Below the pieces are notes generated by a model, which was not told the DNA's origin, did not search any database, and saw only the letters and a list, made by a program, of their open reading frames with translations. DNA of 63,772 nt, the filler included, from an uncultured Methanosarcinales archaeon (GTDB lineage: Archaea; Nanobdellota; Nanobdellia; Woesearchaeales; DSVV01), in the NCBI GenBank assembly GCA_964593285.1. It is 4 parts of 4 records of this genome, joined end to end, with 100 filler letters (N's around TTAATTAATTAA, not from the genome) between each part and the next. Parts side by side here need not be neighbours in the genome. Positions count along the whole stretch, not along the records: positions 21,873 to 37,573 come from CAZQHZ010000022.1; 3 more parts are not named here. One strand, 5' to 3'. Shown piece after piece: positions 21,773-51,785 of the stretch. A program made the translations under genes and the position numbers. The stretch's first letter is position 1. Each line of letters begins with the position of its first letter.

Positions 21773-21872
21773 NNNNNNNNNNNNNNNNNNNNNNNNNNNN
21801 NNNNNNNNNNNNNNNNTTAATTAATTAANNNNNNNNNNNNNNNNNNNNNNNNNNNNNNNNNNNNNNNNNNNN
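21773..21872. other. Artificial joining spacer N44-TTAATTAATTAA-N44
   Basis: Six-frame stop linker. The identical construct occurs three times. Confidence 0.95.
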
Positions 21873-28605: not shown

Positions 28606-29175
28606 TTAATAATCATGCCCAGGGCATAATATTTTATAATTTATTTTTTTTAAATTTTTTAATGTTTTTTCCATTTCCATATTACAAGAAGTTGGTAAGT
28701 CTGTTCTTCCAATATAACCATTATTAAATATTGTATCTCCTGAAAATAAAATTTTTTCTTCTTTTAAAAATAAACAAATACTACCTAATGTATGCCCGGG
28801 TGTATTTATAATTTTTAAATTTAAAATTTTATGATTTAATTTTTCTAAATTTATTTTTTTTAAATTGTTTGCAATTTCTTCATTTAAAACAGTTTTATTA
28901 GAATTTTTGTTAAATAATTCTATTTCTTTTTCTGATGCATAGAATTTAGCATTTTTAAATAAATCAAAATTACTACAATGATCATAATGTAAATGAGTAA
29001 ATATTACTTTTTTTACATCATCTAAATTAATTATTTTTTCTAATTCCTTTTTTAATAATTCTTTTTGTGAATTTATTCCAAGATCAATTAAAATAATTTC
29101 ATGATTCATTATTATATAAGTATTTGAAAATAAACTAATTTTGTAAATTTTGTCAGTTATTTTTTTTATTGCCAT
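28606..29175 (-). CDS. MBL-fold hydrolase (glyoxalase II-like)
   Basis: THLHYDH, TPGHT.G, FSGD, GRTD, PGH. Confidence 0.9.
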   Translation of the reverse strand: MAIKKITDKIYKISLFSNTYIIMNHEIILIDLGINSQKELLKKELEKIINLDDVKKVIFTHLHYDHCSNFDLFKNAKFYASEKEIELFNKNSNKTVLNEEIANNLKKINLEKLNHKILNLKIINTPGHTLGSICLFLKEEKILFSGDTIFNNGYIGRTDLPTSCNMEMEKTLKNLKKINYKILCPGHDY

Positions 29176-29183
29176 TTTTAAAA

Positions 29184-29594
29184 TTAAATATCTAATGAAA
29201 CTTTTGCATAAAAACCTTTATTTGTTTTTTTAAATTCAAAATCATAATATGTTACTGCTTTAACAACGGTTTTTCCAAGTTCTATTTTAAAATCATCACC
29301 ATAACAAATTGCTTTTAAATTATTTTCATTTATTGAAACAATTTTAAAATCAGAATAAAATTTTTCTTCAATATCAACTAATGCAATTAAATAATTAAGC
29401 CAATTTATGTATAATTCTTCTAAATTATCTGATTTTAATTCAACATTTGTTTTTTTTGTTTGTTTTATCATATCAATTTCACAAATAATTGAGAATAAAG
29501 CTTTTGCAGAATCAATAAATAATTCTTGAATTGTTTTTGAATTAACCTCAAATACAACATCTGATGTTAAACCTTTAATGATTTTATAACTCAT
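29184..29594 (-). CDS. Archease (RtcB cofactor)
   Basis: TSDV, ELF..SA.A, WL..LI, VKAVTY, C-terminal LDI. Confidence 0.85.
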   Translation of the reverse strand: MSYKIIKGLTSDVVFEVNSKTIQELFIDSAKALFSIICEIDMIKQTKKTNVELKSDNLEELYINWLNYLIALVDIEEKFYSDFKIVSINENNLKAICYGDDFKIELGKTVVKAVTYYDFEFKKTNKGFYAKVSLDI

Positions 29595-29627
29595 TTAATA
29601 AAAGCAATTTAAAAATATATAAAAATG

Positions 29628-30155
29628 TTAGTATTTTTTTAATAATCCAGGAATTGCAGCTCCAATTGTACATGGAAATGAAACTAAAATTATTAAATTT
29701 CTAATAATTTCAAAATTATTTGCAATTAATGGATTATTATTAACATTTAATAAAAAAATTAAAATTAATGTTACAAATAATGATACAGAATATAAAACAA
29801 TAAGTCTTTTAATTACAAAACTAACTACTTTTCTTTCTTTTTTATTTGGAACTCGCAAATATGAAATAAATAAAATTTGAAAAACTAATATTAATAAAGT
29901 CACAAATACTATTAAGACTAAATGAGTATAAGTTAAATTTATTGCAAGCTCAATTAATCCTCCTTTAAATACAAATGTTAATCCAATTAATAATGAACCA
30001 AAAAAAGAATTAACTACATCTTTAATTGAAAATTTAGATGGTGTTTTAAAAACAAGTGTCTTTTTTAAATAATCAATATTTTTTTCCAAAACACATAATT
30101 CTTTTTTTTCTTCGTCTAATTCTCTTTCAATTTTGTAAATAATTTCTTCGTCCAC
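29628..30155 (-). CDS. Membrane protein (DUF2391-like)
   Basis: FS.KDV...FFGS, C-terminal GAA..LL; four TM segments. Confidence 0.6.
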   Translation of the reverse strand: MDEEIIYKIERELDEEKKELCVLEKNIDYLKKTLVFKTPSKFSIKDVVNSFFGSLLIGLTFVFKGGLIELAINLTYTHLVLIVFVTLLILVFQILFISYLRVPNKKERKVVSFVIKRLIVLYSVSLFVTLILIFLLNVNNNPLIANNFEIIRNLIILVSFPCTIGAAIPGLLKKY

Positions 30156-30287
30156 CTTTTAGTTTATAATAAACAACATTTTTAAAGTTTTTGAGTCCTT
30201 TTAAAGTTGTAACTTTAAAATTTAGTAATATAGATTAAATCTTTATGCAAATTTAACTTAACTTTAGAATGTAGATAAAATAAAAAA

Positions 30288-30857
30288 TTAATTCTTAAAT
30301 TTTAATAAAATTTTATTTGCTATTTTTTCAATATATTCTTTAGCCTCAATTGAACCTTTAGAAGTTATATGGATTAAAAATAAATCGTTAGTAAACCAAA
30401 GATGATAATAATGAACATTTTCCTCATTAAATTCTCCACCATAATCTTTTTCACTATTAACTCTAAATACACTTTGATCTCCATAATTATCTTTACTTAT
30501 TAAACCCTCACTACTAAATAAATGACTTGAAGAATATTGATATGTCCCATTTAAATCATGTAAATTAGTGTATTTTTTAAATTCAATAATAATTTTGGTA
30601 TTATTTAATTTTTCAATTGTATAATTACAAAAAGCATATTGTTTTAAAGGTGAAAATTCACTGGTATTATAATTTTCAATTTTACATTCAGAATTTTTTT
30701 TAAAACCTAATTTTAATAGATCATTTTCATTTAATACTAATTCATCAACATCTGATATATTAGTTGTTTTTTCAATTTCATCATATTTATCAATTGAACA
30801 TCCAATAAAAAATACTAAAATAATTACAAACATTATTGATTTTAAAAATTGTTTCAT
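30288..30857 (-). CDS. Putative lipoprotein
   Basis: Signal peptide with FIG-C. Confidence 0.75.
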   Translation of the reverse strand: MKQFLKSIMFVIILVFFIGCSIDKYDEIEKTTNISDVDELVLNENDLLKLGFKKNSECKIENYNTSEFSPLKQYAFCNYTIEKLNNTKIIIEFKKYTNLHDLNGTYQYSSSHLFSSEGLISKDNYGDQSVFRVNSEKDYGGEFNEENVHYYHLWFTNDLFLIHITSKGSIEAKEYIEKIANKILLKFKN

Positions 30858-30977
30858 AATAATTTAAAAAATATTATAATATTTAAAACTACTTAAAAAC
30901 AATAAAATAAAAAAAATTATTTTAATCACAAATAATTAAAAACCTTTTTATATAAAAATAAAAAATATATAATTAAT

Positions 30978-32246
30978 ATGGAAACAATTGCAGATTTACA
31001 TATACATGGAAAATATTCTAGAGGTTGCTCTAAACAATTAATTTTTGAAAATTTAGAAAAATATGCAAAAATTAAAGGAATCAATTTACTTGGAACAGGT
31101 GATTTTACACATCCAAAATGGTTTAATGAGATTAAGACAAAATTAAAAAATGATGGAGAAGGAATTTATAGAACAAAAACCAATTTTCCATTCATTCTTC
31201 AAACAGAATATTCTTTAGTTTATACGCAAAATAAGAAAGGTAGAAGGATTCATTTAGTTATTTTAGCTCCAAATTTAGAAATTGTAGAACAAATAAATGA
31301 AGAAATGAAAAAAATTGGACGTGTTGACTATGATGGAAGACCTATTTTTAATTTAAACTGTGTTGAATTCACAGAAAAAATGATGAATATTAGTAAAGAC
31401 ATTATAATAATTCCTGCACATATTTGGACACCTTGGTTTAGTTTATTTGGAAGTAAATCAGGATTTAATTCATTAAAAGAATGTTTTATGGAACAAACAA
31501 AAAATATTCATGCAATAGAAACAGGACTTTCAAGTGATCCACAAATGAACTGGAGAATTAAAGAATTAGATAAATATTCTATATTATCTTTTTCTGATAG
31601 CCATAGTTTTTGGCCATATAGAATTGGAAGAGAGGCTACAATTTTTAATATTAAATTAAGTTATAAAAATTTAGCTAATGCGATAAAAAAACAAAAAAAT
31701 ATAAAGGAAACTATTGAAGTTGATCCAAATTATGGAAAATATCATTTAGATGGACATAGAAAATGTAATATTAAGTTTTATCCAAACCAATCTAAAAATA
31801 ATAATAATATTTGTCCTGTGTGTAAAAAACCTTTAACTATAGGAGTATTGCAACGAATTGAAGAACTTGCAAACCGAGATGAAAAATATATTGATAAAAA
31901 TAGACCTAAATTCAAAACATTGATGCCACTGCAAGAAATTATTTCAAATATTAAAAATAAAGGAATTTTAACAAAAACTGTATGGCAAGAATATTATAAA
32001 ATTTTAAAAATTGGAAAAAATGAAAATGATGTTTTATTAAATGTTTCAAAAAAAGAATTATTAAAACAAACTGATGAAAAAATTGCTGATGCAATTATTT
32101 TAAATAGAGAACAAAAAATTATTGTAAGTTCTGGCTATGATGGAGTTTATGGAAAACCATTATTTACTAAAGAAGAAATCAAAAAAAATGAAGAACAAAA
32201 AATTCAATCAATTTTTTCAAAACAAAAAACAATTAATAATTTTTAA
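30978..32246 (+). CDS. endoQ: Endonuclease Q family (PHP domain + Zn finger)
   Basis: ADLHIH, GTGDFTHP, PAHIWTPW, ETGLSSD, SDSHS, GKYH..GHR.C, CPVC, GV..RI..LA, GYDG.YG. Confidence 0.9.
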   Translation: METIADLHIHGKYSRGCSKQLIFENLEKYAKIKGINLLGTGDFTHPKWFNEIKTKLKNDGEGIYRTKTNFPFILQTEYSLVYTQNKKGRRIHLVILAPNLEIVEQINEEMKKIGRVDYDGRPIFNLNCVEFTEKMMNISKDIIIIPAHIWTPWFSLFGSKSGFNSLKECFMEQTKNIHAIETGLSSDPQMNWRIKELDKYSILSFSDSHSFWPYRIGREATIFNIKLSYKNLANAIKKQKNIKETIEVDPNYGKYHLDGHRKCNIKFYPNQSKNNNNICPVCKKPLTIGVLQRIEELANRDEKYIDKNRPKFKTLMPLQEIISNIKNKGILTKTVWQEYYKILKIGKNENDVLLNVSKKELLKQTDEKIADAIILNREQKIIVSSGYDGVYGKPLFTKEEIKKNEEQKIQSIFSKQKTINNF

Positions 32247-32620
32247 TTGTTAATTTCGAGTAATTCTTTTACTTTTTCACCCAATTCAAAGCCATCAAAA
32301 GGTTTTGTAATATAAGCAACAGCTCCAACATCAATTCCTTCTAAAATATCATGGTCCTCTTTTTTAGCAGAAACCATAGCAATTACAATATTTTTTGTTT
32401 TTGGATTTGCTCTTAATTTTTGACAAACTTCATAACCATCCATACCAGGCATCATGATATCTAATAATATTAGATTTGGTAATTGTGTTTTTGCTTTTTC
32501 TAATGCATCAAAACCATCATATGCTTCAATAAAGTCATAACTTTCTTCTCCAAGCATTAATTTAACTAAATCAACAATTTGTGGTTCATCATCAACAATT
32601 AATATTTTTTTTTTATCCAT
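32243..32620 (-). CDS. Stand-alone response-regulator receiver domain
   Basis: ILIVDDE, LLDIMMPGMDG, VSA, YITKPF. Start placed at MDKKK. Confidence 0.92.
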   Translation of the reverse strand: MDKKKILIVDDEPQIVDLVKLMLGEESYDFIEAYDGFDALEKAKTQLPNLILLDIMMPGMDGYEVCQKLRANPKTKNIVIAMVSAKKEDHDILEGIDVGAVAYITKPFDGFELGEKVKELLEINN

Positions 32621-32733
32621 TAAATATTGTAATAATACTAAGTTTATATATTTTATTGAATTTTTTGTTTTTATTTCTATTTTAATAATTATTAACAATA
32701 TTTTTTTATATTAAGTTTATATTCTTTATTTTA

Positions 32734-34017
32734 ATGTATAATTTAAATGAAATTTTAAATTCAAAAGAGATAAATAAAGAAGATAATTATTTAAAATATA
32801 AAGATTTGATACGACCAAATTCTTTATTTGAACTTCAAGAAAAACTTTTTAGTAATAATTATAATTCTATAAAAAATAATCAAAAAAAATTTCTTTTTTC
32901 ACCAAAAGATTTAATGAATTACAAAAATTTAAATCAATATGAAGTATCTAATATTTTTCTTAAAAATAAACAAAGATACATTCAACTCTCAAATGATATA
33001 GACACTCATTTTTTTATTGATGAGGGTATTTTTAATAACAATTTATACAATAATATATCAGAAAATGAAGATTTAGAAATTAAATTATCTAAAGAAAAAA
33101 GCGATATTGATAATTTTCTTAAAATAAAAAATCAAAGAAATAAATGGCTTATTGAATATGGAATTTATAATGATAAAATATTTGAAACATTAATTAAATA
33201 TTTTAAATCAAATTTAAATACAAATTCTAATAATTATTCAAATATTATAACATCAAAAAAATTTTTTACAAAAGATGAATTTTTAAAATTAAATTTTAAA
33301 TATAATGAATATTCAAATAAAATTACAAAGTTTGCAGAAATAATTTTAAAAAATAATATGAATTTTATTAAATATTTTGCACATAAAGCAAGAAAAGAAA
33401 ATCCAAATAATGAACTTGATGATTTAATTCAAGAAGGTTCAATTGGTTTTTTAAAAAGTTTATATGAGTTTGATAAAAATGTTTCTTCACTTTCTACATA
33501 TGCATCATATCGCATTAAAGCCAACATTTATAGCTATTGTAAAAAAAATACTAAAATTAAATATCCTATAAGACATTTTTCAAATTTTTATAATGTTAAG
33601 TCTGCAATTAATGAATTGAATACAAATGAATCTTTAAAAATTTCTAATTATACTGGAATTTCATTAAAAAAAGTTAATGAACTAAAAAAAGAAGAATTTC
33701 ATTATATCTTTTCATTAGATGAACCAAATGAAACAAAAAATAATTATCATGAATTAATACCATCTAATTCTTTTTTAGACCCATTTATAGAAGAAAAAAA
33801 TAATTCAAATAAACGTTTGATTAAAAAAATAATAGAGCCCATTCCACAAAAGAATAAAAATATTTTTAAAAAACATTTTTATGAAAATAAAAGTTATAAT
33901 GAAATCGCAAGAGAATACAACATCACAAAACAACGAGTTGATCAAATTATTCAAAAAACATTACGAAAAATAAGAATTAAAATCAAATCTAATGGATTAA
34001 AAATAAGTGATTTTTAA
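32734..34017 (+). CDS. Sigma-70 family protein (regions 2, 3, 4) with divergent N-terminal half
   Basis: DDLIQEGSIGFLKSLYEFD, LSTYASYRIK, FSLDEP, SYNEIAREYNITKQRVDQIIQKTLRKIR. Confidence 0.85.
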   Translation: MYNLNEILNSKEINKEDNYLKYKDLIRPNSLFELQEKLFSNNYNSIKNNQKKFLFSPKDLMNYKNLNQYEVSNIFLKNKQRYIQLSNDIDTHFFIDEGIFNNNLYNNISENEDLEIKLSKEKSDIDNFLKIKNQRNKWLIEYGIYNDKIFETLIKYFKSNLNTNSNNYSNIITSKKFFTKDEFLKLNFKYNEYSNKITKFAEIILKNNMNFIKYFAHKARKENPNNELDDLIQEGSIGFLKSLYEFDKNVSSLSTYASYRIKANIYSYCKKNTKIKYPIRHFSNFYNVKSAINELNTNESLKISNYTGISLKKVNELKKEEFHYIFSLDEPNETKNNYHELIPSNSFLDPFIEEKNNSNKRLIKKIIEPIPQKNKNIFKKHFYENKSYNEIAREYNITKQRVDQIIQKTLRKIRIKIKSNGLKISDF

Positions 34018-34042
34018 AAAAAAAGAAAAAAAAAGAAATGAT

Positions 34043-34234
34043 TTATTCTTTAGAAACATTAACTGCTTTTGAACCTCTATCTCCTTGCTCAACATCAAAT
34101 TTAACTGAATCATTTTCATTAATTGCAACACCATCATTTAATCCTGTTTGATGCACAAAATATTCTTTTCCATCTTCACCAACAATAAAGCCAAATCCTT
34201 TCATGTTGTTAAAAAATTTTACTGTTCCTTCCAT
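34043..34234 (-). CDS. cspA: Cold-shock protein
   Basis: GTVKFFN..KGFGFI, FVH, G..A.NV. Strong SD GGAGGTGA. Confidence 0.95.
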   Translation of the reverse strand: MEGTVKFFNNMKGFGFIVGEDGKEYFVHQTGLNDGVAINENDSVKFDVEQGDRGSKAVNVSKE

Positions 34235-34409
34235 AGTTTTTCACCTCCGTTCATTATTTTTAAGTAGAATCATTTTTATTATATTAAAATTCATTTTTTT
34301 ATAAAATTTAATAAGAAATTCTTTTGTAATAATAAATAAACTTTCACTCATAATTTAATTGTACCTTTATTTTTTTATATTTGATTATTGAAAATTAAAA
34401 AAATTAAAA

Positions 34410-35081
34410 TTAATTTTTTTCTTCCGTTTTTTTATTTGTTTTTTCTTTTGTTTTTTCTTTTGTTTCTTTCTTTGCTGTTGTTTCTTTTTTTAAATCTTTG
34501 TCTTTTGCATCTAACTTTTCTTCTGTTTTATTTTTAGATGTTGTTTCCTTTTTTAAATTTTTCTCTTTTATATCTGCTATTTCTTCTTTTTCGTTCTTTA
34601 ATGTTTCTTTTTTTAATTCTTTTTCTTCTGTATCTACTTTTTCTTCTGCTTCTTTATTAGATGTTTCATCATCTTTTTTTTTACTATCTGTTACTGGTTT
34701 GTATGTTTGAGTTAAATCTTCTTTTTCTTTTTGTTTTAGGCCGATTCTTTCAGCTACTGATTCTTTTGTCTTTTCTTTCTTTTCTAATTCTATTTCTTTT
34801 CCAAATATTTCTGCTCTAACTAATCCTTTATCATCTTTAATTGCATTAATTTTAACATGATGTGGTGGATTTTGAATTCCATTTTCCCATATTTTTTGAT
34901 TTAAATGTTTTCCAATTTTTACATTTTCAGATTTCATATGTTTTATTAAAAAATGTTTTAATGCACTCAAAGCTCTATTTGAACGTTTGTATTTTGGTGC
35001 TTTTACAAAATCTCTTCTTAATGGAACATTATATGTTCTTTCAAGAATAACCTTTGATTTAGTTTCTTGTACTTTAGCCAT
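34410..35081 (-). CDS. rpl31e: Ribosomal protein L31e with ~120-aa Lys/Glu-rich C-terminal tail
   Basis: ERTYNVPLR, R..RA...LK.F..KHMK, LNQKIWENGIQNPP. Confidence 0.92.
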   Translation of the reverse strand: MAKVQETKSKVILERTYNVPLRRDFVKAPKYKRSNRALSALKHFLIKHMKSENVKIGKHLNQKIWENGIQNPPHHVKINAIKDDKGLVRAEIFGKEIELEKKEKTKESVAERIGLKQKEKEDLTQTYKPVTDSKKKDDETSNKEAEEKVDTEEKELKKETLKNEKEEIADIKEKNLKKETTSKNKTEEKLDAKDKDLKKETTAKKETKEKTKEKTNKKTEEKN

Positions 35082-35086
35082 GTTAA

Positions 35087-35260
35087 TCATCCTTTTATTT
35101 TTGTCCTTCTCCAGTTTCTTTTAACTGTTGTATGTCTTCCTGGATGAACTTTTCTTGTTTTACCGTATATTTTTGGTACTGTCCAAAATGGAGCCCATCT
35201 TGTTCTTCTACCAAATTTACCCAATCTTATTTTTCTACTTAAATGAATATATTTTGCCAT
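35087..35260 (-). CDS. rpl39e: Ribosomal protein L39e (absent from the ORF track)
   Basis: MAKYIHLSRKIRLGKFGRRTRWAPFWTVPK...KRNWRRTKIKG*, located between S19e and L31e. Confidence 0.9.
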   Translation of the reverse strand: MAKYIHLSRKIRLGKFGRRTRWAPFWTVPKIYGKTRKVHPGRHTTVKRNWRRTKIKG

Positions 35261-35286
35261 TTTTTTAAACCTTTTATAAAATAATT

Positions 35287-35748
35287 TTATTTTTCTTGAT
35301 TTTGTAAGTTTTTTGTCTCAATATTTTTTGCAACAGTATTTAATAAAGAAACCCCTTTACCTGTTATTACTTTCCCTTTATGTCCTGATTTTACATCTTT
35401 TTTTATTAATTCTGCTTTTTCTAATTGTTGCAAAATTTTTCTAATAATATTACCTGATGCTTTTCTAAATTCATTTGGTTTATAACCTCTTCGTTTTTTT
35501 CCACCATATTTAACTCTTAATTTAGATACACCAATTGGACCTAAATTTAAAACTTTTATTAAAATAGATGCACTTCTAATATACCACCAATCATTTTGTG
35601 TAGGTGGTCTTTCTTTATTAACACCAGTTTTAACATACTCTGCCCAACTTGTAGGTTTTATTTCATCAACTTTTTTTAATTCTTGTGAAGTAAGATTAAT
35701 TAACTCGTTTTTTTGTGAATTGAATATTTTATTCATTTTTTCCTCCAT
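35287..35748 (-). CDS. rps19e: Ribosomal protein S19e
   Basis: WAEYVKTG..KE.PP...WWY.R.AS, YGG..RRG, RKILQQLE.A. Confidence 0.95.
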   Translation of the reverse strand: MEEKMNKIFNSQKNELINLTSQELKKVDEIKPTSWAEYVKTGVNKERPPTQNDWWYIRSASILIKVLNLGPIGVSKLRVKYGGKKRRGYKPNEFRKASGNIIRKILQQLEKAELIKKDVKSGHKGKVITGKGVSLLNTVAKNIETKNLQNQEK

Positions 35749-37573: not shown

Positions 37574-37673
37574 NNNNNNNNNNNNNNNNNNNNNNNNNNN
37601 NNNNNNNNNNNNNNNNNTTAATTAATTAANNNNNNNNNNNNNNNNNNNNNNNNNNNNNNNNNNNNNNNNNNNN
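37574..37673. other. Artificial joining spacer N44-TTAATTAATTAA-N44
   Basis: Same construct as 21773-21872. Confidence 0.95.
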
Positions 37674-42100: not shown

Positions 42101-43099
42101 TTAATATATTTGATTGTTATTGTCTTTGTTATTTGATAGAATTTCTGTTTTTGGAATGTATGTGTTTTTTAAAATATTACTTGAATCACAAACAATGTAA
42201 TCATAAAATTTAAATTCCGCTCTTAATTGATTTAATGTATCGCTATAATTTTTAAAGCTTTCAATTCGCAGTAATAAATTATATACTCCAAGTAGCTTTG
42301 TTAAACTTGTAACTTCATTGAGACTTTGAGCAAAATTAACCATTTTATTCATGACATTAGGAGTTTGGTTATGCATTTTTATTAAAACATTTGCAACAGA
42401 AATATTTAATTTTTTATAGTTTATTATGATTCCATAATTTCTAATTATTTCATTTTTTTCTAGAATTTTTATTTTGTTAATAATTGTTCTAACATTAAGT
42501 TTTGTTTTTTTTTCAATATCTGTTATTTTTATGTTTGGATTTTCAATTAAACATGATAAAATTTGTCTTGAATTTGTGGAAAGGTTTATTTTTTCTCTAT
42601 CACCAGATAAAATAATATCTTTTGAAATTTTGCTTCTTTTATTTAGAAATTTTTGTGAAAATTTGTGTTTTACTATTACTGGATACATCCCTATAACTTT
42701 AATTTCATTATTATATTCTTCTATAAATCGTGTATGTATTTTATTGAAAAATGAAAGGTTTGGTATTGTATATTCTACCATTAGATCTGCTTTATGTGAT
42801 GTTTCATCAATATAGGTTACATAATCATTTTCAAATAAAAATTCTTTAATTTTTTTTTGTTTTTCTTTTTCAAAAGTTGTATAAACTATAAATACTAAAA
42901 CATTTATAAGTCCTAGTTTTGCTGGATCTATTTTTATTTCATAATTACTAATTATTTTTTGCTTAAACATTTTATCCACTGCATAATTTATTAATTGTGG
43001 ACTTATATGTAGTTTTTTTCCAATATCTTTTTTTTTAAGTCTTGAATTATTTGTTAATTCAAAAAGTAGTTTATCTTGATATGAAAATTTTTGTTTCAT
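42101..43099 (-). CDS. Tandem (double) Lrp/AsnC-family regulator
   Basis: Two HTH + RAM-like repeats: D.LL.EL..NSR....IGKKL..S and IL..L..NP....TDI..KT.L..RT...KI..LE. Confidence 0.85.
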   Translation of the reverse strand: MKQKFSYQDKLLFELTNNSRLKKKDIGKKLHISPQLINYAVDKMFKQKIISNYEIKIDPAKLGLINVLVFIVYTTFEKEKQKKIKEFLFENDYVTYIDETSHKADLMVEYTIPNLSFFNKIHTRFIEEYNNEIKVIGMYPVIVKHKFSQKFLNKRSKISKDIILSGDREKINLSTNSRQILSCLIENPNIKITDIEKKTKLNVRTIINKIKILEKNEIIRNYGIIINYKKLNISVANVLIKMHNQTPNVMNKMVNFAQSLNEVTSLTKLLGVYNLLLRIESFKNYSDTLNQLRAEFKFYDYIVCDSSNILKNTYIPKTEILSNNKDNNNQIY

Positions 43100-43252: not shown

Positions 43253-44461
43253 ATGGAATGTAAAATTGGGCTGGAACTTGAACTTAACCTTATTGATGAA
43301 AAGGGTAAACTTTCAAATAGTGCTGACGATATTTTGTTAAATTCTAAAAAAAATAATTATATAATTGGTGAATTATCTAAATCAATGATTGAAGTTATTG
43401 GTGCTCCTTCTGCTGATGTTTTAGAAGTTGGTAGAAATTTTGGAAAAAATCTTTTATTACTTGATGATATTGTAAAAGAATATAACCTTATGCTTGTTCC
43501 ATCATCTACTGTTGGAAATGATGCAAAACCAATGTCTAATGATTCACAAAGAATAAGAGGAAATAGAAAAAGAAAAATACTTGGTAATTATCTTCGCGAT
43601 CTTGAACATCATATTTGTGGTACACATGTACATATAGATCATTTATCTACTATTGAAAAAACATACAAGCAATATCTTGTAATGCAGGCCATGGATTCTA
43701 TGTTTAGTTTAATGTCTTCAACACCTTTTTTTCTTGGAAATAATACCAAAAAAGATTATCGTGTAGATATTTATAGAAATATTATTTTTAAAGATTTTCC
43801 ACTTCAAGGTCAATTAATTGATTATCCAAAATCATATGAAGATATATTTAAGAATAGAGAGAAAGGTTTTAAACAATGGGTTTCTTTAGATAATTACAAT
43901 GGTTTTGATGGTTTTAAACCAGAAGATACTAGCTGGGGTCCTATAAGGCTTTGTAAAAAAACTGTAGAATCAAGATGTGCTGATGCAAATTTATTTTCAA
44001 AAGTATTAGCTCTTGCAACACTTTATCAAGCAGCATCTCATTTTATTGAAAATGAAAATCCAAAAATAACAATAAATAACTATGTGGGCTTTTCTCAAAA
44101 AAATTTTTTTAATTATAAAAAAAAGGAACTTATTTTGCCAAATTATGATTTTTTAAAAAAATGTGAATATGATGGAATAAATAAAGGGATTTCTTCAGAG
44201 ATATTAAATCCATATTTAAGTAATATAATGAATACTTTAAAAACATATATTAAAAATAAAGATTTAACATATATTGATTCATTTTTAGAATCTCTTAAAA
44301 AAAAAGAAACATTTTCTGATAAAATAATCTCGTATGCTAAGAAAAATAATCTTGAAAAAAATCATCAATTAAAAGAGTCATCTGCAAAAGAAATTCGTCA
44401 TTATATTGCATCCGAATATAATAAGGATCTTAATATAATGAAAAAAAATTTGAGATTATGA
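43253..44461 (+). CDS. Glutamate-cysteine ligase family 2 (GCS2/YbdK-like) carboxylate-amine ligase
   Basis: IGLELE.NLID, ELSKSMIEV, CGTHVH, SSTPF, W..IR....TVE.R..D. Confidence 0.85.
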   Translation: MECKIGLELELNLIDEKGKLSNSADDILLNSKKNNYIIGELSKSMIEVIGAPSADVLEVGRNFGKNLLLLDDIVKEYNLMLVPSSTVGNDAKPMSNDSQRIRGNRKRKILGNYLRDLEHHICGTHVHIDHLSTIEKTYKQYLVMQAMDSMFSLMSSTPFFLGNNTKKDYRVDIYRNIIFKDFPLQGQLIDYPKSYEDIFKNREKGFKQWVSLDNYNGFDGFKPEDTSWGPIRLCKKTVESRCADANLFSKVLALATLYQAASHFIENENPKITINNYVGFSQKNFFNYKKKELILPNYDFLKKCEYDGINKGISSEILNPYLSNIMNTLKTYIKNKDLTYIDSFLESLKKKETFSDKIISYAKKNNLEKNHQLKESSAKEIRHYIASEYNKDLNIMKKNLRL

Positions 44462-51685: not shown

Positions 51686-51785
51686 NNNNNNNNNNNNNNN
51701 NNNNNNNNNNNNNNNNNNNNNNNNNNNNNTTAATTAATTAANNNNNNNNNNNNNNNNNNNNNNNNNNNNNNNNNNNNNNNNNNNN
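51686..51785. other. Artificial joining spacer N44-TTAATTAATTAA-N44
   Basis: Same construct as the other two spacers. Confidence 0.95.

Follow-up and report, generated by a model that had tools for sequence, protein, structure and literature searches.

What does a sigma-70-family protein do in an archaeon whose own genome encodes archaeal RNA polymerase subunits only, together with TBP and TFB? The phenomenon is not new, as sigma-70 in Woesearchaeota has already been published: the accessible part of the report by Castelle et al. (2021) describes sigma-70 genes in DPANN archaea, excludes mis-binning, and finds no anti-sigma factors (PMC8204110). The role of sigma in archaea without a bacterial polymerase has been an open question since 2021; a second question is which hosts Woesearchaeota live on. 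We analyzed one such gene in a window of 63,772 nucleotides (the whole stretch of DNA under study). The gene belongs to this published and unexplained family, has long been resident in its genome, and is under selection. We propose, at somewhat less than an even chance, that its product, P0001, works on the polymerase of a bacterial partner and not on the archaeon's own. The first-pass annotation had offered either a DNA-binding regulator or a factor acting on a bacterial partner's polymerase; the second, which it called speculative, fits the residue evidence described below somewhat better.

The gene and its locus

The window consists of four contigs (C19, C22, C23, and C26) joined by N-linkers at 21773-21872, 37574-37673, and 51686-51785, so that neither the thermosome gene nor any gene past 37673 is linked to the sigma gene. 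Past that point lie a GCS2 (glutamate-cysteine ligase)-like ORF (43253-44461, + strand), a weak Pfam match barely over the cut-off, and, divergent from it, a double Lrp/AsnC-type regulator (42101-43099). The sigma gene (32734-34017, +), an ORF of 427 aa without internal stop, shares one gap-free stretch of C22 (23370-37573) with the genes for archease (29184-29594, -), endoQ, eL31, and eS19. Its divergent neighbor is a stand-alone receiver of 125 aa identified by Pfam (32243-32620, -), 113 nt from the sigma ATG, followed by a TIGR00375-family gene (30978-32246, +; 210.8 bits, below the cut-off of 326.6), a family that we take to be EndoQ. On the other side, a bacterial-type cold-shock domain protein found by Pfam (34043-34234, -) is directly convergent with the sigma gene and is followed by the ribosomal genes eS19, eL39, and eL31 (34410-35748, -). 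Pfam matches identify archease, eL31, and eS19; the 57-aa ORF between the last two gave no match in a Pfam search and is presumably eL39 by its position and motif. The first-pass description of a sigma-70 protein on a gap-free stretch with archaeal genes, divergent from a receiver across 113 nt, is thus accurate, and the endoQ and eL39 that it named are supported, the former by a match under its cut-off and the latter by position and motif only. The eL31 gene (34410-35090, -) encodes 226 aa with a long Lys/Glu-rich C-terminal tail, the Pfam match ending at aa 82.

Misassembly at the flanks, an objection raised at the outset, was rejected leftward and across the sigma gene, as 29000-34419 is spanned, at 42 differences, by a 5,867-bp contig from run X2 of study P2, which is independent of the likely source run; this contig joins the sigma gene to archease and endoQ. 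This spanning contig was not returned when reads were compared again under stricter settings. Contigs from X1 and X2 both break in a low-complexity repeat (34427-34476) within the eL31 tail, and the link of eL31 and eS19 to the sigma gene therefore comes from the genome assembly only. All runs containing at least half of the stretch are metagenomes of microbial mats, from two studies, and no RNA run is among those listed.

The genome is 1.18 Mb in size, 95.9% complete and 0.12% contaminated, and contains one sigma match over cut-off. Its size and gene content point to a DPANN archaeon of the Woesearchaeota type. Codon usage of the sigma gene (GC3 0.077) is close to that of adjoining genes (0.087-0.111). 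An archaeal TATA-like box (32705-32711, +) lies 29 nt before the sigma ATG, and TTTAWAW heptamers peak 28-33 nt ahead of start codons genome-wide. As the DNA is AT-rich, one such site is modest evidence, and the box is likely the promoter of a leaderless sigma transcript.

Domains and residues of P0001

The gene encodes an intact sigma-70-family protein. Regions 2 and 4 occur in sigma-70 order and both exceed curated cut-offs in the Pfam search that had been suggested for them (Sigma70_r2 over aa 208-274, 35.6 bits against 24; Sigma70_r4 over aa 371-414, 36.8 bits against 24.1), and the general sigma-70 profile TIGR02937 scores 87.5 bits (cut-off 42.9). An AF2 model of aa 191-427 adopts the sigma 2-3-4 fold at pLDDT 94, from a 105-row sigma alignment that itself favors this fold, and the Foldseek matches listed for the model are sigma chains and polymerase-sigma complexes. 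The full-length fold, predicted from 3 sequences, is of low confidence ahead of aa 280, with pLDDT <50 in the N-terminal domain.

When aligned to E. coli RpoD, region 2 (33319-33579, +; aa 196-282) retains the region 2.2 core-binding set D230, Q233, and E234 (E. coli D403, Q406, and E407), along with Y256 at Y430 and K262 at the R436 position, and places Y259-R260 at W433/W434, as the first-pass annotation had observed. Region 3 (33580-33768, +; aa 283-345) has a shorter 3.0 helix-turn-helix, a conserved S-L-D-x-P entry to the 3.2 finger, and a finger less acidic than that of RpoD. In region 4 (33769-33993, +; aa 346-420) the -35 helix is remodelled, R584/E585/R588 being replaced by K399/Q400/D403 while Q589 is kept. 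The -10 reader is also changed (Q437 to A, R441 to S), and with both elements remodelled the RpoD consensus is unlikely to be the target of P0001.

Like RpoD, RpoS, and RpoH, P0001 carries regions 2, 3, and 4 in order, a DLIQEG core-binding motif, and the 3.2 linker. Unlike RpoD and RpoS, it lacks the group 1/2 marks (the W433-W434 dyad, Q437, R441, and the RERIRQ -35 helix) and gives no significant match to region 1.2, and its genome is without a bacterial core enzyme. Most of its archaeal relatives are of the RpoD/RpoS type, with the WW dyad in 69 of 104 and region 1.2 in 71 of 103.

The replacement of WW by YR could be read as a sign of repurposing, an argument that does not stand. In the accessible part of a study of P. 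aeruginosa sigma-28, I79/R80 occupy W433/W434; this Arg is a conserved group 3 residue, stacking on the flipped base is provided by Y76, and R82 contributes to melting (PMC12784957). The corresponding pair in E. coli FliA is Q-R. P0001 bears this group 3 mark, with R260 at W434 accompanied by Y256 (Y430) and K262 (R436). YR is therefore a known working arrangement that gives no argument for repurposing, and a loss of melting was rejected since sigma-28 with this configuration melts DNA. Group 3 sigma-28/FliA (E. coli FliA, Aquifex 1rp3, P. aeruginosa FliA) also provides the best solved-structure match of P0001 (E 3.5e-14) and, as FliA/WhiG (TIGR02479), its top NCBIfam subfamily. P0001 differs from these proteins in scoring 75.7 bits, under the subfamily cut-off of 189.6, in its very long branch, which does not group with FliA in trees, and in having an extra N-terminal domain and no adjoining flagellar gene.

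The first ~200 aa had been called unrecognizable. This is correct for about 165 aa, which have no assignment, and incorrect beyond them, as whole-length sigma profiles begin matching at aa 163-168. The N-terminal domain (32734-33228, +; aa 1-165) gave no match in Pfam and no usable match in Atlas searches, and a region-1.2 profile scores below shuffled sequences on P0001. The domain is common only to a 99% identical twin (P0003) and an orthologue (P0096), which sets P0001 apart from the published sigma family; conservation of 35 of 81 residues with the orthologue over aa 20-100 indicates a domain and not junk.

Twin and orthologue were the only two close relatives recovered when 1.84 billion representatives were searched with aa 161-427, P0096 scoring 245 bits and the next match 81 bits. 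P0096 (441 aa) is 41% identical to P0001 over 414 aligned residues and has in common with it the D-x-x-Q-E-G motif, the YR pair, and the N-terminal domain, so that the idea of P0001 as a singleton, allowed for in the first-pass annotation, was rejected. The two proteins are far apart in amino-acid composition, with GC-rich ratios of 0.14 (P0001) and 0.74 (P0096), a fivefold difference. Their conservation is highest in regions 2.2 and 2.3-2.4 (14/23, 10/17, and 12/20 identities, compared to 14/35 in region 4.2). The DNA encoding P0096 was not found, including among 401 genomes of the phylum, nor was that of the twin in metagenome_contigs.

Distribution and evolution of the archaeal sigma genes

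A check of distribution, as the first-pass annotation had advised, recovered sigma-70 proteins above the TIGR02937 cut-off in 22 genomes out of 28 from the family and in 114 of 301 sampled from the order; the profile also passes in all 10 bacterial controls and in none of the 4 archaeal ones. The order survey scored 11 candidates per genome, such that genomes called sigma-not-found may include misses, and its tallies, like those of the 401-genome search for the P0096 DNA and of the lytic transglycosylase comparison below, include unpublished genomes (G131, G150, G194, G216, G218, or G299). The frequency in the order matches that of the published family fam00359 in Woesearchaeota, 39% of 196; the accessible text also gives 38% for both Pacearchaeota and Aenigmarchaeota, 15% for Micrarchaeota, and a signalP value of 0.0 (PMC8204110). 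P0001 resembles fam00359 in being a sigma-70 gene beside archaeal markers in a DPANN genome, likewise without a signal peptide. The same accessible text contains no residue-level analysis, polymerase comparison, or proposal of a bacterial polymerase as the target. Our literature search, which fell short of most subscription papers, returned nothing further on DPANN sigma-70 beyond Castelle et al. 2021, and no proposal of a bacterial-polymerase target for a DPANN sigma.

Better-scoring matches yielded 104 archaeal region 2-4 cores after six duplicates and one fragment were dropped, with ECF-type copies, which do not match the seed, outside the set; six of the cores come from unpublished genomes (G131, G150, and G194). 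The residue classes (core-binding, melting, -35, and -10) follow the E. coli literature and are in part borne out by PMC8321222. Relative to E. coli RpoD, the cores retain core-binding residues D403 (92/101), E407 (78/103), and Q406 (68/103), melting residues Y430 (96/104) and W434 (86/104), and -35 residues E585 (89/103) and R588 (87/103), figures that are inflated because cores were chosen by sigma-profile score. The 32 most diverged cores (mean identity 28%) kept 59% of core-binding, 54% of melting, and 58% of -35 residues, but 22% of -10 readers. Some of the kept residues (G408, L384, V387, and perhaps D403) may be structural.

Sigma genes elsewhere in the order have no common genomic context. 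Among 143 of 158 neighboring ORFs scanned, with rows from the present locus and repeats dropped, archaeal housekeeping genes are frequent and receivers absent. The genome of P0001 itself holds 12 receiver matches (on C4, C5, C7, C9, C10, C14, and C22). A sigma-receiver module was rejected on these two counts, and the neighboring receiver is not a conserved partner. Some sigma paralogues lie in tandem, at most four together, as in an array of four diverged copies (L063; G064:C3:14500-23500) and another of three (L064; G203:C6:7000-14000); the N-terminal parts of two paralogue pairs in these arrays have dN/dS of ~1.1-1.2. Several sigma proteins are very long, from ~890 to >1,050 aa (L003 460-3678, L011 502-3672, L038, L096, and L100), with large N- or C-terminal additions and one open frame of 1,763 aa; those of L003 and L011 adjoin a tRNA splicing endonuclease.

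Best placed among the alternatives is a protein that no longer needs a polymerase, namely a DNA-binding regulator inside the archaeon in which region 4, with region 2 or 3, would sit on operators near TATA boxes while the N-terminal domain senses a signal or dimerizes. Such a regulator would need no export and would suit the single copy of P0001 in its genome and the remodelled -35 and -10 readers, partly remodelled in the same way in P0096. However, what P0001 and its orthologue keep best is regions 2.2 and 2.3-2.4 and not region 4.2, core-binding residues outlast -10 readers across the family, and no gene neighbor is conserved. Overall we consider this regulator unlikely, though worth serious consideration.

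Selection on the sigma cores is purifying but loose. In four same-site pairs of congeneric genomes, all published, core dN/dS was 0.49, 0.18, 0.13, and 0.50, compared to 0.31, 0.008, 0.058/0.097, and 0.098/0.060 for adjacent genes at the same pairs. The dN/dS comparison called for in the first-pass annotation gives core values <1 in all seven pairs with finite dS and evolution faster than that of the adjacent genes; the raised dN/dS fits relaxed selection equally well. Strain differences listed for P0001 affect at least 3 codons non-synonymously and at least 2 synonymously, too few to judge. In one pair of genomes (L004 and L012; G024 and G020), the sigma genes, flanked by Kae1 on one side and a glycosyltransferase on the other, encode proteins of 56% identity and have a dS of 2.9, whereas the adjoining Kae1 is 95% identical with dS 0.44, which suggests gene replacement in place.

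Identity of the copies to E. coli RpoD varies between 19% and 68%, P0001 at 19% being the most diverged of the 104. One copy is 79-84% identical to bacterial RpoD, nearly all acidobacterial, and sits on a 9.7-kb contig with no archaeal marker seen. In a 274-row tree, archaeal copies are scattered among bacterial ones, and a single archaeal clade was rejected in a 33-row tree (p-AU 4e-10), but not in a quick tree of marker-flanked sigmas only (p-AU 0.063). The 274-row tree includes six cores from unpublished genomes; two of these are in alignment A2, in the 33-row tree, and in another tree that also places P0001 apart from FliA; the marker-flanked tree includes none. Repeated capture of sigma from bacteria is therefore likely, though not proven; the very long branch of P0001 itself has no sure position. 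Two subgroups are distinguished by their region-2.1 motif (L053, L061, L076, L064, and L096; and L083, L070, L069, L093, and L081), motifs reminiscent of sigma factors of the PVC group and Bacteroidota, and such distinct motifs are possible donor markers.

The genes could also be weakly selected passengers from bacterial DNA that drift for a long time and are then lost, having no consistent function. Their patchy occurrence without synteny, their high dN/dS, and some truncated or split copies (L018, the first copy of L057, L022, and one match with an internal TGA) would agree with this. We regard it as improbable for the family, given that the region 2-4 profile is covered in full by 99 of the 104 cores (the other five include two clear truncations and one core that runs off the fetched sequence), core dN/dS stays below 1 in every pair with finite dS, P0001 and P0096 retain their identity despite the shift in composition, and codon GC3 of the gene is fully host-like.

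The polymerase on which P0001 may act

In bacterial polymerase, beta-prime R275, E295, and A302 are essential for binding of sigma region 2.2, according to the accessible part of PMC8321222. The archaeal clamp has I, L, and H at these positions and G, D, E, E, W, and D in place of the basic residues R270, R271, R281, R293, K296, and R297, although it keeps R278 and several hydrophobic positions; its net charge is -5 compared to +1. Comparison of 28 sigma-bearing with 29 sigma-not-found genomes revealed no difference in any coiled-coil column; one variable column outside the coiled coil reached p = 0.015 among 104 columns tested. In the genome of P0001, the flap tip is 7 residues shorter than in bacteria and without the helix motif seen there. 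A search of 36 sigma-bearing genomes gave no second polymerase: 34 have one largest-subunit match, two have none, and none has two; this count and the clamp comparison draw on published genomes. A complex prediction of sigma region 2 with the archaeal clamp scored 0.02 and is not read either way. Judged from these alignments, the archaeal enzyme shows no adaptation to sigma. Since the sigmas keep docking residues whose counterparts are missing from the archaeal clamp, they look built for a bacterial enzyme.

Promoter sequences were also examined. In each of the six archaeal genomes examined, the upstream regions of genes are dominated by TATA-type hexamers. A -35/-10 spacing test gave no clear excess in five sigma-bearing genomes, with a borderline E. 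coli control (p = 0.064-0.073); one of three settings of this weak test gave 1.15-fold in the genome of P0001, again against the borderline control. A role in initiation by the archaeon's own polymerase, as an alternative factor that reads bacterial-type promoters such as those of acquired genes, would need no export, would suit lineages with archaeal hosts, and could draw on a homologous clamp coiled coil that keeps R278 and several hydrophobic positions and on the core-binding and melting residues kept in the sigmas, but it is highly doubtful in view of the changed equivalents of R275, E295, and A302, a more acidic clamp that is alike with or without sigma, the missing flap-tip helix motif, the TATA-type upstream regions, and the presence of TBP and TFB.

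The reading that we tentatively prefer thus places P0001 on the polymerase of a bacterial partner, and beyond the retained docking residues every step of it is one that we infer. The faster evolution of the sigma cores, their tandem paralogues, and the likely repeated capture from bacteria also speak for it. The sigma gene would be expressed via TBP and TFB from its archaeal TATA-like box in an archaeon living on a bacterial cell, and the protein, which has no signal peptide, would move through a direct cell-to-cell connection. There it would compete with host sigmas, the bacterial beta-prime coiled coil receiving region 2.2 and the flap tip receiving region 4. From its sigma-28-type melting set and remodelled -10 and -35 readers, P0001 is predicted to direct a narrow, non-housekeeping class of promoters or to act mainly by sequestering core enzyme, whereas RpoD-like relatives would instead keep housekeeping promoters firing. 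If the proposal is true, an archaeal protein acts on bacterial transcription and offers a sequence-based pointer to hosts, as the donor lineage of each copy would point to a present or past host; if not, P0001 is one more case of a published oddity. The mismatch between sigma and clamp makes both the role of these sigmas and the hosts of Woesearchaeota testable with bacterial core enzyme.

Phage sigma factors such as SPO1 gp28 and T4 gp55 redirect the polymerase of their host. P0001 resembles them in that the gene belongs to a genome without a bacterial polymerase and would be used on the enzyme of another organism. It differs in that phage genes are expressed inside the host, whereas the archaeal protein must cross between cells; the phage matches listed (the best 12 of 20) are 22-30% identical.

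A generalization, in which Woesearchaeota-type archaea capture, duplicate, and diversify bacterial sigmas and deliver them into bacterial hosts to take over RNA polymerase, as cross-domain transcription effectors, is possible, at a chance well short of even. Several results count against action on a bacterial partner's polymerase. The lineages with fam00359 include Aenigmarchaeota and Micrarchaeota, whose cultured members have archaeal hosts, and we know of no delivery route across a bacterial wall. A hydrophobic N-terminal export signal is absent from 92 of 93 sigma copies, one having a hydrophobic stretch. Three secretion-type ATPases are over cut-off in the genome of P0001. In the accessible parts of these sources, some Woesearchaeota are suggested by Castelle et al. 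to have bacterial hosts, in favor of the proposal (PMC8204110), and another paper repeats the wall-cutting argument with no mention of sigma (PMC10936187). Against it, one preprint abstract says that all cultivated DPANN need an archaeal host (10.1101/2023.02.24.529834). DPANN are described as forming cytoplasmic bridges and nanotubes with archaeal hosts (PMC11329633), the only hosts for which these sources report them. In its support, two lytic transglycosylase matches are present in the genome of P0001 (C3:27850-28185 and C10:21720-21875), one of them in a large protein. Against it, across 301 genomes lytic transglycosylases are not associated with sigma (59/115 versus 97/186, p = 0.91). At one locus (L073 1121-1930; G095), a lytic transglycosylase abuts a tandem sigma pair, the sole case among the 143 neighbors.
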